From Vulcanimicrobiota bacterium (GTDB lineage: Bacteria; Vulcanimicrobiota; Vulcanimicrobiia; Eremiobacterales; Eremiobacteraceae): a DNA stretch of 64,000 nt. This document shows positions 698 through 39,189 of the stretch, one piece after another; positions within the stretch are counted from its first letter, which is position 1, and each line of letters opens with the position of its first letter. Location: NCBI GenBank assembly GCA_963805945.1, contig CAWDVP010000004.1, positions 32,001 to 96,000 of the forward strand. Reading direction: 5' to 3'. Position numbers and translations under genes: made by a program. The notes under the pieces are model-generated. The model was not told where the DNA came from and made no database searches. It saw only the letters and a program-made list of their open reading frames with translations.

Positions 698-748
698 TTA
701 TGCACAACTCTTCCACAACAAAGTTTTTCAAACCGCCGCTTATCCACA
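698..748 (+). promoter_or_regulatory. Cluster of DnaA-box-like 9-mers
   Basis: TTATCCACA (perfect) 740-748, TTATGCACA 698-706, TCTTCCACA 709-717; same orientation, AT-rich intergenic DNA. Confidence 0.5.
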
Positions 749-778: not shown

Positions 779-807
779 TTGTGCTGATTAAGGCCTGATT
801 GTATACT
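779..807 (+). promoter_or_regulatory. Sigma-70/sigma-A type promoter
   Basis: TTGTGC (779-784), 17-nt spacer, TATACT (802-807). Confidence 0.65.
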
Positions 808-813
808 GCCACT

Positions 814-1067
814 ACACCGACCGCGGTGCCGGGGAAGCGAAGCAACAACGGATGGTGCGAGTGCAATCGCACAGAGCTGAGCGCCTCGGGAATGGTACCC
901 CTGCCGTTGGGGACTAGGCTTCCAGCCCAGTGATGGCCCTGGGGATCGCGTCCCAGTAAAGCCAAAGTAAGCGAACCGGCAACGGCCGTTGACCAGTTCG
1001 AAAATGAGGCTTCCGCGCCATCGACCAGACCAGTTACGACCGGGCTCACGCCCGGTCGTTACTGTTT
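814..1067 (+). ncRNA. Unassigned structured RNA (stand-alone sRNA, 6S-like RNA or leader RNA)
   Basis: Lies between a promoter and a terminal hairpin; five nested long-range helices between 851 and 1022; no credible ORF. Confidence 0.55.
1031..1067 (+). terminator. Terminator-like hairpin
   Basis: CAGTTACGACCGGGC-TCAC-GCCCGGTCGTTACTG followed by a short T run. Confidence 0.55.
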
Positions 1068-2446: not shown

Positions 2447-3432
2447 TTAGCCGTTCTGGTCGGGCACCACGATCACAGCCGAAGGACCGTGCGCCGGCAC
2501 GCGTGGTGCTACGCTCGGCGCGTCGACCACGAAGAAGTTGGTGTCCGTTCCTGGGCCGATGGCAAAGGAGTCGTCGCCGAATTGGGTCGGGCTATGGTTG
2601 GTGTTGCTCACGCATGCAGCGTTGCGCGGATCATCGGCCGTAATCGAAGGAAGCGAGGGAACCGCCGCGTTCGGCGGTCCTGCCGCTGCGTTGACTCTCG
2701 GGGATGATCGCGGCTCCTACATAGGCGCCAAAGCAGAAGGTCCCGGTCGTGCTCGACTTCAGCAAGAAGTTGGTCTTCCAGCTCGTCGTCACTTTGCCGG
2801 GCGTACCCACGGTGATTCCCGTGCCGATGGCAGTCCCTGCGTTCGTGCCGTCGCCGCATAGCGCCGGCGCGGGGCACGAATACCAGAAGTCGAGCGTGCC
2901 CGCGTTCGGCGATGCGTTGAGGACGCTCACCGCGCGGATGCCGACCGGCGTCTGATAGACCGGCATGGTGAAGATGCCGAACGTCGTCGTGTGATACGCG
3001 GCGTCGCCTTCCGCGACGACCGTGATCTTCTGACCGGCCGCCACGGTGACGATCTGATCGAGGAACGTCGGGCTGCAGCGTGCCGTGCTGCACGAGTTTG
3101 ATATCATGCGGTCCGACCGGCAGCTCGATGTACGGCGTGACCGGTACCGCGGGGCCGCCGGAGACGAACGGCACTGACGCCGCGTACGGGTACGCGAAAT
3201 TGAGGATCGCGAGCTTGTTGTCGATATACAGGTCGGTGTTGTTCACGAGCAGGTTCAGGTTCGGCGAGCCTTGGACGAATTGAACCCGCGCCGAGCCGCC
3301 TGGAAAGCCGATGGGTTGGCCGAACGGACCCGATGCCGGCACCGGAGTCTGGCTGCTGACACAGGACGCCAAAGTTACCCCGGCCACCAACGCAGCGCCG
3401 ACTGCGGCAAAACGTGAGAAGCTCATCCGCAT
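2447..3432 (-). CDS. DUF4397-like lipoprotein (2 apparent frameshifts)
   Basis: Lipobox LASC; repeated DUF4397-like segments ARVQFVQGSP and VSVLNASPNAGTLD; joined from ORFs 2608..3579 and 2631..3107. Confidence 0.6.
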
Positions 3433-3559
3433 AGAGGTCCTTTCCCCGAACGTGCGTGAGGAGTTCGCAAACGCGCCTTTGCGACGGTTGTACCGGGCCG
3501 TGTTTCGACCAGAAGGGGGGTGTCCCTTCCCCCGCCGCGCGACCTGTCGGACGGGCGGT

Positions 3560-5133
3560 TTAGGCCGGGGGCGCCTCAAGCCGCTTTTTCACGGCTTGCA
3601 GAAAATGGGACGCGACGGCGCCGTCCAAAACCCGGTGGTCGAGGCATAAGCAGAGGTTCATGATGTGCCGGATGACGATGGCCTCGCCCACCACCCACGG
3701 CCTGCGGACGATCGCTTCCATGGTGATGATGGCGGCCTGCGGCGGGTTGATGATGGGCACGGAGGCGATGCTGCCGAGGCTGCCGGTGTTATCCACAGTG
3801 ATGGTGCCGTCGGTGAGATCGTCCAGCACGAGCTTGCGGGTGCGCGCCTTTGAGACCAGATCGTTGATGCTGGCGGCGAGCCCGGCCAGGCTGTAGCGGT
3901 CGGCGTCCCTGACCACGGGCACGACGAGCCCTTCTTCGACGTCGATGGCGACGCCGATGTTGATGTGGCGCCGCTGGATGATGGAATCGCCGGCCCACGT
4001 CGCGTTGACCATCGGGTATTCGCGGATGGCGCCGCATACCGCTTGGATGACGAGCGGCAGGAAGGTCAGCGCCACGCCTTCGCGCGCCTTGAACGCCTCC
4101 TTCTCTTTGTTGCGCCACTCGACGAGACCGGTGACGTCGGCTTCCACCATAGACCAGGCGTGCGGAATCGTCGTCTTCGACAGCACCATGCGTTCGGCGA
4201 TCGTCTTGCGCATCTGCGAGAGCCGGATGACGGTGTCGTCGGGTCCGGGCGGTGCGATCGGCAATGGTTGAATCGTTGAAGCGGCGACTTTTATCGGCGC
4301 GGGCGCTGGCGCGCTCGGCGCAGGCGCGCTCGGCGCGGTGACGCTCGGCGCGTGCGGCTGCCGGCAGGCGCGACGACGGGAGCCGCGCTCGCGGCCGGCA
4401 CGATGGCCGGCGCCGGTTCGGCGGCCGGCTTTTTCGCAGGCGGCGCCGTCGCAGGCGGCGTTGCGGCTGCGGATTGCATCGCTGCCGGCGCGGCTGCAGC
4501 TGCTTTGGGAGCCGTGCCGGATTCGACGTGCGCGACGACGTCGCGCGCGGTGAGCCGTCCGCCGCGTCCGGATCCGGAGAGCCCAGCGAGATCGATATGA
4601 TGCATGCGCGCGAGCCGGCGGACCGCCGGCGAATAGCGCGCGCCGTTGCCGCCCGCCTGTGAATCTGCTTCGGCGGCCGGCGCGGCGACAGGTGCGCTGG
4701 TCGGCGGCGCACTCGCGACAGGTTCCGGCGCGGCTGCGGCGACGGGTGCGGGCGCAGGCGCGGGTGAAGCAGCGGCGCCGGCGCCGGTGGGCGGCGGGTG
4801 CGGCGACCGCGGGCGCATTGCGGCGGCGGGCGCGGCGGCGACGGGAGCAGGCGCCGCGACCGGCGCGGGAGCGGGTGTGGGCTCGCTCGGCGCCTCACCG
4901 GCCGCGAGGATCTCGCACACCGGCGCGCCGACCGGCACAGTCGTGCCTTCTTGCGCCATGATCCTCGAGAGCGTGCCGGCGAACGGCGACGGGATCTCGG
5001 AAGCGACTTTGTCGGTCTCGACTTCGAGCAGCGGCTCGTACTTGGCCACCGCATCGCCGGCCTTCTTAAGCCAGCGGCCGACGGTGCCTTCCGTGACCGT
5101 CTCGCCGAGTTGCGGCATCAAGACTTGTGGCAC
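3560..5133 (-). CDS. bkdB: Dihydrolipoamide acyltransferase E2 of a 2-oxoacid dehydrogenase (frameshift near 4270-4340)
   Basis: Lipoyl domain EVETDKV, E3-binding [16 protein letters not shown], catalytic DHRVLDG. Confidence 0.9.
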
Positions 5134-5149
5134 TACGAACCCCTCGTGG

Positions 5150-6136
5150 TCAGACGGCGATCAGGTCGCGAGCGGCCGCCGCGATGCGCGCGGGGCTCGG
5201 CATGAACGCCTCTTCATATTCCTTCGCGTAGCCCATCGCAGGCACGTCCGGACCGCACAGGCGCCGGATCGGCGCATCGAGCTCGAAGAGCGCTTCTTCA
5301 GCGATGATGGCCGCGATCTCCGCGCCGACGCCGCCGAACTTATTGTCCTCGTGCACGATGAGCAGCGCCGCGTCTTGGTCGCGGTCGCGATGATCGCTTC
5401 TTTATCCATCGGCCGTATGCTGCGCAAATCGAGCACTTCTGACGTCGATGCCCTCGGCCGCCAGCGTCTCCGCCGCTTCCACCGCCATATGGCGCATGAG
5501 GCCGTAGGTGATGATCGAGAGGTCCTTGCCGGGACGGGCGATCGCGGCTTTGCCGATCGGCACCGTGAAGTCGCCGTCGCGGCACGTCGCCTTTGATGAG
5601 CCGGTAGGTCCGCTTGTGTTCGAGCACGAGCACGGGATCGTCGTCGCGGATGGCGCTCGTGAGCAGGCCTTGCGCATCTGCCGGCGTCGACGGCACGCAG
5701 ATCTTGAGGCCGGGGACGTGGTAGAACAGCGCCTCGACGCTCACCGAGTGCGACAGCGCGCCGCGAACGCCGCCGCCGTACGGCGTGCGGATCACGAGCG
5801 GACACGTGTTGCCGCCGTGGCGCTGCGATAGCGTATCTTGGCGGCCTCGCCCACGATCTGGTTGTACGCGGGATAGATGAAGTCGGCGAACTGGATCTCC
5901 GCGATGGGCCGCATGCCGGCCACCGCCGCGCCGATCGCCACGCCGACGATCGACGCCTCCGCGAGCGGCGTGTCGATGACGCGCTGCTTGCCGAACTTGT
6001 CGAGGAAGCCTTGGGTGATGAGGAAGACGTTGCCGCGCGCGCCGACGTCCTCGCCCATGATGAACACGCGCTCGTCGCGGACCATCTCGTTGTACATGGC
6101 GTCGCGCACGCCTTCGAGCACCGTCTTCGTCGGCAT
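5150..6136 (-). CDS. bkdA2: Branched-chain keto-acid dehydrogenase E1 beta (several frameshifts)
   Basis: [37 protein letters not shown]. Confidence 0.88.
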
Positions 6137-7153
6137 TACGAGAGCGGCCCCGACGCGTACACGTGCGTGTACAGGTCTGCTTCGGTCGGCGTGCGGCTGC
6201 GCCTCGGCCCAGTCGGTCGCCTCTTCGACTTCTTTCTCCATCTGCGCGCGCACGTCGGTGAAGAAGTCGTCGTCGGCGAGCCCGCGGTCGCGCAGCCATG
6301 CTTCGAACTTCGGCAATGGGTCGCGTGACTTCACCGACTCGATCTCGTCGGGCGTGCGATAGGTGAGCTGATTGTCGTCCGAGGTGTGCGACATCGCGCG
6401 ATAGCACTTGGCCTCGACCAGCGTCGGTCCGCCGCCGCTGCGCGCGCGCTCGACCGCCTCGTGCACGACCGAGTACGTCATCACCGGATCGGTGCCGTCG
6501 CAGATCATGCCTTGCATGCCGTAGCCCGCCGCGCGGTCGGCGACGTTGTGGATGGCCATCTGCATCTTCTGCGGCACCGAGATTGCGTATTCGTTGTTCT
6601 CGCACAGGAACACGCACGGCACTTTATGGATGGCGGCGAAATTGAGCGACTCGTGCCATTCGCCTTCGCTCGTCGACCCCTCGCCGAACGTGATGAGCAC
6701 GACCGCTTGCTCCTTGCGCATCTTGAACGCGAGCGCCATGCCGACGCCGTGCGGGATGTGCGCGGCGATGATGCTCGAGATGCCCGCGATGTTGCGGTCC
6801 GGCACGCAGTAGTGGTTGGGGAACTGCCGACCGCTCGAGAAGATGTCGCCTTTGCGCGCGAAGAGGCACATCAACTGCTCCTTCGCGGTGACGCCGTACG
6901 ACAGCGCCAGGCAGGTGTCGCGGTAGTACGGCACGACCCAGTCGGTGCCGGCATGCAGGGCGAACGCGGCGCCCGCTTGGACCGCCTCGTGACCCTGGCA
7001 GGTCGCGGCGAAGGGGATCTTGCCCTGGCGGTTGAGCGCGAACGCGCGGTCGTCGCACAGCCGCGTCAAGAGCATCTTGGAATACATCTCGCGCAGACGC
7101 TCGGGCGTCAATCCGTCCGGCAATGCCGCACGGATCCGAGGCTCACTCTTCAT
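6136..7153 (-). CDS. bkdA1: Branched-chain keto-acid dehydrogenase E1 alpha
   Basis: LNRQGKIPF-CQGHEA, TPP motif GEGSTSEG...ENN, HTSDD; resembles Bacillus BfmBAA; true stop probably TAA at 6136-6138 after a late frameshift. Confidence 0.88.
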
Positions 7154-7210
7154 AGGCGGGTTGGTTTCTCCCAGGCGCGGCGCTTCCCCTTACGCGCGCT
7201 TGTTTGAGAG

Positions 7211-7263
7211 TCGACCTAAAGGTCGGCCCCTACATGTCGGCCCCTATATGTCGGCCCCCACAT
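7211..7263 (-). repeat. REP family 1 copy plus tandem half-copies
   Basis: TCGACCTAAAGGTCGGCCCCTAC followed by two GTCGGCCCC(T/C)A units. Confidence 0.8.
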
Positions 7264-8684
7264 CCTCGCCGCCGGGGGATTTGCGCGCCACGCCCGATTC
7301 TGCCGCCGCGGCGGCGACCGCCTTGGCGACCGCCTCGACCACCCGCGAGTCGAACACCGATGGGATCACGTATTCCGACTGACAGTTCGTCGGGCGAGAT
7401 CACCGAGGCGACCGCGTGCGCGGCCGCGAGCTTCATCGCATCGTTGATGCAGCGCGCGCGCGAGTCGAGCGCGCCGCGGAAGACGCCGGGGAAGACGAGC
7501 AGATTGTTGATCTGGTTCGGATAGTCCGAGCGGCCGGTGCCGAGCACCGCGACGTACGGCTCGGCGAGCTCGGGCGCGATCTCGGGCAGCGGGTTCGCCA
7601 TCGCGAAGACGATCGGGTCTTTCGCCATCGAGCGGACCTCGTCGACGCTGACGATGTTCGGCTTCGACAGGCCGATGAACACGTCGGCGCCCTGCAGCAT
7701 CGCCGCCAGCGTGCCGGCCCGGCGCTGTTTGTTGCTGTGATCGGCGACCCACTGCCACATCTCGTTGCCGGGATACGCCGCGCCCGGCACGAGCGCGCCC
7801 GCGCGATCGACGCCGATCACGTCGCCCGCGCCCGCCGAGAGCAGGATCTTCGCGGTCGCGCTGCCGGCGGCGCCGACGCCGTTGATGACGATGCGCACGT
7901 CTCCGATCTTCTTGCGCACGACTTTGAGCGCGTTGAGCAACGCGGCGAGGATGATGATGGCGGTGCCGTGCTGGTCGTCGTGCATGACCGGGATGTCGAG
8001 CGCTTCGGTGAGGCGGCGCTCGATCTCGAAGCAGCGCGGCGACGCGATATCCTCGAGGTTGATGCCGCCGAACACCGGCGCGATGTTGATGACGGTCTTG
8101 ACGATCTCGTCCGGCTCGGTCGTCGCGAGGCAGATCGGGAACGCGTCCACCCCCGCGAACTGCTTGAAGAGCATCGCCTTGCCTTCCATGACCGGCAGCG
8201 CGGCGTACGGTCCGACGTCGCCGAGCCCGAGCACCGCCGTGCCGTCGGAGACGATGGCGACGGTGTTGCGTTTGATGGTAAGGCTCCACGCCTTGCCGGG
8301 ATCTTCGGCGATCGCGAGGCTCACCCGCGCGACGCCCGGCGTGTACACCCGTGACAGCACGTCGCGGTTGGTGACCGCGATCTTCGGATTGACCTCGATC
8401 TTGCCCCCGAGGTGCGCGAGGAACGTGCGATCGGTGATGTGGATGATCCGCACGCCCTCGATCTTCGCGATGTCCGCGACGACCCGGTGGAGATGATCCT
8501 CGTCGCTGACCTCGATGCTGATGTCGCGGATCGCGCGCTTCATGCCGACGCGGCTGACGTCCACCGCGCCGATGCGCGCGCCCGCATCCGCGATGGCCGC
8601 GGCGATGCGGGCGAAGGTGCCCAGCGCGGTCGGCGCCTCGATGCGCACGATCGAGGAAAAGGCGATCTTGAGCGGGCTAGCCAC
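7244..8684 (-). CDS. mae: NAD(P)-dependent malic enzyme with N-terminal ACT domain (late frameshift)
   Basis: [49 protein letters not shown]. Confidence 0.92.
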
Positions 8685-39102: not shown

Positions 39103-39189
39103 TGGTGCCCAGGACAGGACTCGAACCTGCACCGGTTTTACCCGACTAGCCCCTCAAACTAGCGCGTCTACCAATTCCGCCACCTGGGC
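39103..39189 (-). tRNA. tRNA-Leu (anticodon GAG)
   Basis: 87-nt cloverleaf GCCCAGG...CCTGGGC-A-CCA, anticodon loop TT-GAG-GG, long variable arm, TTCGAGT T-loop. Confidence 0.96.

Follow-up and report, generated by a model that had tools for sequence, protein, structure and literature searches.

The window analysed here is a 64,000-nt stretch of one contig from a Vulcanimicrobiota genome, and near its start, between an aminotransferase class III gene and an MFS gene, lies a non-coding RNA gene of ~215-250 nt that is found in one family of uncultured bacteria, the Eremiobacteraceae. Its sigma-70-type promoter, identified by sequence and conservation on the + strand, consists of a -35 element TTGTGC (779-784), a 17-nt spacer and a -10 element TATACT (802-807), and from this spacing a start of transcription is predicted near A814. 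TATACT is present in 28 of the 29 aligned loci and a TTG-led -35 element stands 17-18 nt upstream of the -10 position in all 29; a generic promoter scan of the region did not list this promoter. At the other end, sequence and alignment mark an intrinsic-terminator-like hairpin with a U-rich tail (1031-1067, + strand), built of a 10-bp stem (1036-1059) that is paired in 29/29 copies with five compensatory pairs, and of a further 4 bp beyond a U.U mismatch. Across the homologues, neither the length nor the frame of any small ORF is conserved. These features agree with the original prediction of a structured RNA that is specific to its lineage, contains no credible ORF and is flanked by a promoter and a terminator of its own, a reading that is further supported by the Rfam, distribution, transcript and covariation results below. 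We regard it as nearly certain that the locus is a real, new and lineage-restricted structured RNA gene. The prediction had missed the DnaA boxes, the LexA-type box, the pseudoknot candidate and the palindromic loops.

The RNA is present in many environmental metatranscriptomes, which indicates that repression is not tight. Twenty RNA runs, drawn from 12 studies, contain 21-29% of the sequence words of positions 600-1200. All seven of the runs examined as contigs, from seven studies, contained a contig with 0-1 differences inside 816-1031, with 5' ends at 816-835 and 3' ends at 1020-1031. This span (816-1031) is the probable stable form; the contigs show neither strand nor level, and the + strand is assigned from the promoter and terminator. 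Mapping of the transcript ends had been proposed as a check, and the contigs cover only 816-1031; in one of the two comparisons nothing matched 500-809 or 1058-1400. The 3' ends fall just past the closing helix of the second fold domain, which suggests that the terminator is trimmed, although poor priming within the hairpin could do the same. Across a 6-kb span the other RNA pieces listed were mostly divergent, with at least two pieces of 96-97% identity at a depth of 2.8 in run X7, and raw-read run X21 gave 0 reads in 6% of its data. In run X1 a single contig (depth 7.2), free of ambiguous bases, connects position 1029 with 816; either the two ends were ligated during library preparation, which would map them, or the RNA forms a real circle.

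Some other features of the window and genome were recorded in passing. ARAGORN places a tRNA-Leu(GAG) at 39103-39189 of the window (- strand). The recA gene at G000:C6:347530-348318 (L036, L037; G000 being the source genome) lies in three pieces in different frames, and ORFs of the window also look frameshifted, namely the pyruvate dehydrogenase subunits near 4300-7150 and a DUF4397 gene near 2600-3600; this pattern suggests indel errors in the assembly. ORF translations at 7020-7524 hint at two copies, near 7170-7240, related to the palindromic, probably REP-like element described below.

Distribution and novelty

By BLAST, 29 of 31 genomes of the family carry the RNA, each in one copy, and a covariance model agrees. 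The two genomes that lack it are 72% and 55% complete, are both also without the MFS neighbour and contain only 38-40% paralogs of the aminotransferase neighbour; as the flanking genes are missing too, the locus is probably unassembled in these genomes. BLAST detected the RNA in 0/29 genomes of other families. The covariance model detected it in 0/119 genomes from two other families of the class and in 0/141 genomes from 20 other families of the phylum, a set that overlaps the 119, while a laxer scan of 40 genomes gave matches of 12.8-18.3 bits in three only, the best of which is a GC-biased alignment. BLAST against phage and plasmid records returned one 26-nt chance match and none, respectively. 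Pattern scans of public collections listed 200 stretches (54 metagenome, at least 120 genome and 26 viral), among which there were at least seven true model matches, with none among the 26 viral stretches. Three of these matches are titled Vulcanimicrobiota or Ca. Eremiobacteraceae and one, by its title only, 'uncultured proteobacterium'; two are listed without a title and one is a metagenome contig. Given the size of the genome pattern scan, distant relatives may exist beyond the family. In metatranscriptome run X11, a second, divergent member of the RNA family was also found, with the apical palindrome TCCGGA.

The comparison with Rfam that had been proposed for the locus returned no family: a scan of the RNA span with the covariance models of Rfam 15 gave zero matches at E<=10, the 6S, Ms1 and ribozyme models included, and five homologous loci gave only weak matches of 14-19 bits, far under the gathering threshold. 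The RNase P RNA and tmRNA of the genome are present elsewhere, as is its canonical 6S RNA (G000:C2:379189-379369, 90.3 bits). The raiA model RF03072 had 0 matches at E<=10 in the whole genome. A search of literature listings, with few subscription papers among them, yielded no description of the RNA, of its lineage or of joint control by LexA and DnaA. A search for antisense targets within the RNA's own genome produced none that stood out (best E 1.7). Judged by model or by defining features, the RNA belongs to none of the OLE, ARRPOF, ROOL, GOLLD and raiA RNAs.

Conserved fold and palindromic loops

The fold was derived from an alignment of 29 full-length copies, those of the source genome and 28 relatives; genome G014 was omitted as its copy is split over two contigs, and three of the 29 rows come from unpublished genomes (G010, locus L009; G013, L022; G016, L028). 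The region folds better than shuffled sequences (z = -3.0). In the consensus, a multi-junction fold with a candidate pseudoknot, 98.0% of cells are paired and 32 of 66 pairs are compensatory (n=29); 0/500 shuffles scored as high and slid controls reached 31-44%. Covariation resolves two helical domains, preceded by a 5' hairpin, all on the + strand. This hairpin, P1 (815-828), is near-invariant, 99% paired and devoid of covariation, and overlaps a palindrome, ACCGCGGT, that is replaced by ACCGCGCGGT in 4/29 copies (an insertion variant of one genus). Domain I (829-889) is closed by P2 (829-833/885-889; 3/5 pairs compensatory), which encloses a conserved strand, AGCAACAACGGATG, and hairpin P3 (855-860/867-872; 5/6 pairs compensatory) with a palindromic loop core at 862-865. 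Domain II (894-1026) has a closing helix at 894-896/1024-1026, in which pair 896:1024 is UA in 20 copies, CG in 5 and UG in 3, and holds P4 (898-912), with one compensatory pair that depends on G013, P5 (914-930; 4/6 pairs compensatory) and P6 (932-936/1018-1022; 2/5 compensatory). P6 leads to a covarying three-way junction with hairpin P7 (939-956), whose palindromic loop core is at 947-950, and the long P8-P9 arm (961-1010), which carries an apical palindrome at 984-987. A candidate closing helix at 825-827/1024-1026 was dropped; 894-896/1024-1026 covaries instead. A candidate pseudoknot between AACGG (847-851) and CCGTT in the P4 loop (904-908) is complementary and invariant in 29/29 copies, with no covariation, and probably locks the two domains together; P1 and the pseudoknot, being invariant, are unproven by this approach.

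This branched fold displaces the nested rod of the original prediction, which can be drawn for the one sequence yet lacks conservation among the homologues: 72% of its cells are paired and 5/32 pairs are compensatory against a shuffle mean of 4.9, a count that leaves out helix 890-896/992-999. Its helix at 903-909/980-986 is just 47% paired across the alignment. In the source sequence itself the rod is less stable (-69.3 vs -84.1 kcal/mol), with pair probabilities of 0.00-0.07. One rod element, the apical hairpin at 939-956, is real and equals P7. By contrast, the hairpin at 855-872 that was thought to compete with the rod as a switch is the constitutive helix P3, and the 'A-rich bubble' at 964-979 belongs to the internal loop of the long arm. 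The collection of homologues and test of covariation that had been suggested for the locus therefore support an RNA gene, with a branched fold and not a rod.

Three loops of this fold, L3, L7 and L9, are palindromic in 29/29 copies and change solely from one palindrome to another. The L3 core (862-865) is TGCA in 26 copies and TCGA in 3, the L7 core (947-950) is CGCG in 26 and CATG in 3, and the L9 apex (984-987) is CCGG in 12, CTAG in 10, GGCC in 6 (the state of the source genome) and GTAC in 1 (n=29 for each). One of the three CATG loops comes from G016, but each loop switch also occurs in other genomes. Palindromic 4-mers are found in 0/29 copies of control loop L4, 1/29 of L5 and 0/29 of the terminator loop, and in 27-46% of shuffled L3, L7 and L9 loops. 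In all 29 copies the bases at 863/864 and at 948/949 are complementary and covary, the sole column that is fully complementary to each being the adjacent base. As adjacent bases cannot pair within one chain, this covariation points to contact between chains. On a tree of the upstream aminotransferase, the loop states require seven changes (minimum six), none of which passes through a non-palindrome. A rough post-hoc probability for five new states all being palindromic comes to 7e-7 when all four positions may vary freely, 3e-4 when just the middle two may, and 1.6e-3 with L3 discounted as a tetraloop swap.

GCAA and UUCG are common stable tetraloops, and the L3 change could be a swap between the two. 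L7 and the majority of L9 states conform to C-NN-G. In the source genus L9 is a 4-nt loop atop a fully palindromic stem and may form an extended duplex, or nothing. The putative kissing loops have behind them only ~5 independent switches of loop cores. The same adjacent-base signature accompanies intermolecular kissing loops verified by cryo-EM in OLE (L9.3) and GOLLD (L21a), according to Kretsch et al. (PMC12286853). From these patterns we infer homotypic kissing and oligomerization, and consider self-association through at least one palindromic loop to be probable.

DnaA and LexA-type boxes before the promoter

A DnaA box, TTATCCACA, lies at 740-748 (+ strand) and keeps the same offset from the promoter (+/-1 nt) in 29/29 loci. 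Further upstream is a DnaA-type box recognised by sequence, TTATGCACA, at 698-706 (+ strand), with a weaker one at 709-717; the boxes at 698-706 and 740-748 were called with the DnaA-box consensus. A second DnaA box occurs 20-55 nt upstream of the main one in 19/29 loci. As dnaA lies on another contig, oriC is unlikely to be at the RNA locus. Upstream of dnaA itself, at G000:C2:309002 (L298), DnaA boxes form a cluster that is likely the dnaA promoter or the oriC region.

Between the main DnaA box and the promoter there is a LexA-type (SOS) box, CGAAC-AGTC-GTTCC (763-776, + strand), which ends 2 nt before the -35 element. Compared with the LexA-box consensus CGAAC-N4-GTTCG, the box has at most one mismatch in 27/29 loci and two mismatches in the other 2. 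We read it as a LexA box because the same box precedes lexA (in two copies), imuA-imuB and a class II ribonucleotide reductase gene in the source genome. No SOS box was found directly upstream of recA, and several box-like sites precede genes without an evident SOS role. The combined DnaA and SOS-box pattern was present in 26/29 genomes of the family, 4/297 genomes of the sister family and 8/74 others; none of the six non-family matches examined, out of 12, held the RNA. On this evidence from sequence and conservation, control of the RNA promoter by LexA or DnaA appears quite probable.

Other sites of this type were noted in the genome. At G000:C4:165400-167500 (L308), two SOS boxes lie in the region between lexA and a small, divergently oriented LysM-domain gene, an arrangement that recalls SOS cell-division inhibitors such as YneA. 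The SOS box upstream of the class II (B12-dependent) ribonucleotide reductase gene, at G000:C5:45958 (L302), is perfect. A repeated palindromic element, GCCGAACT.AAGTTCGGCCCCTACA, at G000:C2:24286, C2:334690 and C6:26575 mimics an SOS box and is probably REP-like.

Alternative readings and a proposed mechanism

The original prediction had offered a riboswitch-like leader for the MFS gene as one function of the RNA. A riboswitch or attenuator controlling the MFS exporter at 1075 would fit the position of the terminator just before this gene, the presence of the gene directly downstream on the same strand in 25/29 loci and three short conserved alternative pairings (5-6 bp) with the terminator arms. 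Linkage is therefore largely kept but fails in the other 4/29 loci (L014, L019, L023 and L025, from two genera), where no MFS gene lies within the stretch examined and the RNA is intact; in the three of these that were examined, a convergent DUF4139-family gene follows the RNA and shares its symmetric terminator. The upstream aminotransferase gene, on the other hand, is present in 29/29 loci. Outside the family the MFS and aminotransferase genes are unlinked, and 60 orthologous loci of one or the other have no such RNA element. This pattern of neighbours inside and outside the family favours an independent RNA gene. Moreover, the alternative pairings would have to break the covarying helices P2, P7 or P4, the supposed switch hairpin is constitutive, and the RNA contigs, among the pieces listed for seven runs, do not extend into the MFS gene. 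A leader function is thus highly improbable, although some read-through into the MFS gene may occur given its linkage. A second RNA-polymerase-binding RNA, similar to 6S or Ms1 RNA, is scarcely credible: the RNA is stable, single-copy, about 200-250 nt long and apparently abundant, and like 6S RNA (RF00013) it stands alone at a similar size, but RF00013 misses the locus, the genome has its canonical 6S RNA elsewhere, no Ms1 model matches and the conserved fold is branched (98% paired) where 6S RNA is a rod with a central bubble (72% for such a fold here). The likelihood that the RNA is a structured message encoding a small, SOS-induced peptide, of the kind represented by tisB and dinQ, is almost negligible; the LexA-type box and the heavily structured transcript would suit it, but candidate ORFs that share a start differ in length between 17 and 52 codons and the homologues differ by frame-shifting indels.

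More weight belongs to the possibility of a monomeric, abundant, trans-acting RNA that acts as a protein sponge or RNP core, as raiA RNA may, with the loops being stable tetraloops or products of symmetric mutation. GCAA and UUCG are both common tetraloops, and in CCGG>CTAG and CGCG>CATG the C>T substitutions are symmetric, as could result from deamination at a methylated site. However, no single-change intermediate occurs at the three loops in 29 sequences, while flanking positions and control loops do vary singly, and GGCC and GTAC need transversions. The longer inverted repeat of the terminator has no palindromic loop (0/29), which argues against hairpin-driven template switching. The RNA does resemble raiA motif RNA, as characterized in PMC12968392, in its size (~200-250 nt), its one locus per genome, and a multi-junction layout in which a putative pseudoknot would tie a hairpin domain to a domain ending in a three-way junction, raiA RNA being trans-acting and abundant. 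Unlike raiA RNA as described there, it lacks both the long closing P1 formed by the 5' and 3' ends, with its GU/GGU bulges, and the UUAGACGUAA linker, and its candidate pseudoknot is invariant and of different topology. We consider a monomeric role unlikely overall. A processed or circularized ribozyme or precursor, with 1029 joined to 816, is very unlikely: the compact core, the invariant single strands and the pseudoknot candidate would be in keeping with it, as would the joined contig of run X1, but this is one contig in 1/7 runs that library ligation or template switching explains, no Rfam ribozyme family matches and RtcB was not found in the 82%-complete genome. Bacterial Y RNA, which acts with Rsr through a Ro-binding stem, is a further stable RNA linked to DNA-damage stress. 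The 5' GGTGCCGA and 3' TCGACC segments loosely recall this stem, but here they pair elsewhere with covariation (in P2 and P6), and no TROVE protein (Rsr) was matched in the 82%-complete genome.

Our preferred reading is of a branched non-coding RNA that is likely self-associating and has predicted tuning by LexA and DnaA, and we assign it as a whole a probability of about 0.6. By analogy, we predict that the RNA works in the manner of OLE, ARRPOF, ROOL and GOLLD, the homo-oligomeric ornate RNAs presented in PMC12990946. It shares with OLE, GOLLD and ROOL an ornate, covarying fold and an unresolved function, and with OLE and GOLLD swaps of loop palindromes at adjacent bases (OLE L9.3 GGCC/GAUC/AGCU; GOLLD L21a GC/CG), as described in PMC12286853. 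In contrast to these RNAs, it has no Rfam match, is about 215 nt long rather than 550-830 nt, combines three palindromic loops in one small RNA, has predicted LexA/DnaA control and was not seen among the phage records and viral contigs examined. ARRPOF RNA, according to PMC12990946 a 255-nt homodimer with kissing loops, is bacterial and of similar size; the likeness is one of size and description only, and the RNA studied here has no Rfam match and belongs to a different lineage.

In the mechanism that we propose, RNA polymerase would start near A814 and stop at the hairpin of 1031-1067, both elements being conserved. A stable ~215-nt form, from about 814/816 to 1026-1031, would then accumulate after presumed trimming of the terminator. 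This form, whose span is that of the RNA contigs, folds into the two helical domains shown by covariation, with the putative AACGG/CCGTT pseudoknot probably locking them, and the adjacent-base covariation suggests that L3, L7 and L9 would each bind their counterpart in a second copy to give a dimer or a higher assembly. Until DNA is damaged, LexA at 763-776 would keep the promoter damped, and DnaA bound at 740-748 would couple it to the state of replication. The weakest step is the last, in which the assembly would have a trans-acting role, most likely as a stable scaffold or sponge that binds protein in replication stress. A bolder version is also conceivable, if rather unlikely, in which three or four self-specific sticky loops build a protein-free, RNA-only cage, lattice or condensate; LexA and DnaA would together set the level of the RNA, and the body would form on DNA damage or stalled replication.

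Here we have described a new RNA family, restricted to one family of bacteria and with its function inferred, which provides a lineage marker for a widespread uncultured group. Few natural RNA-only oligomers are available for comparison, most of them large and of unknown function. This RNA is small enough to synthesise, its fold is backed by covariation and the natural palindrome swaps are ready-made controls; if the model is true, loops from different genera should not cross-pair. The conserved DnaA and LexA boxes offer a physiological lead that is rare for such RNAs, pointing to DNA damage and replication stress. The evolution of multivalent RNA self-assembly, and the reason for it, thereby become directly testable.
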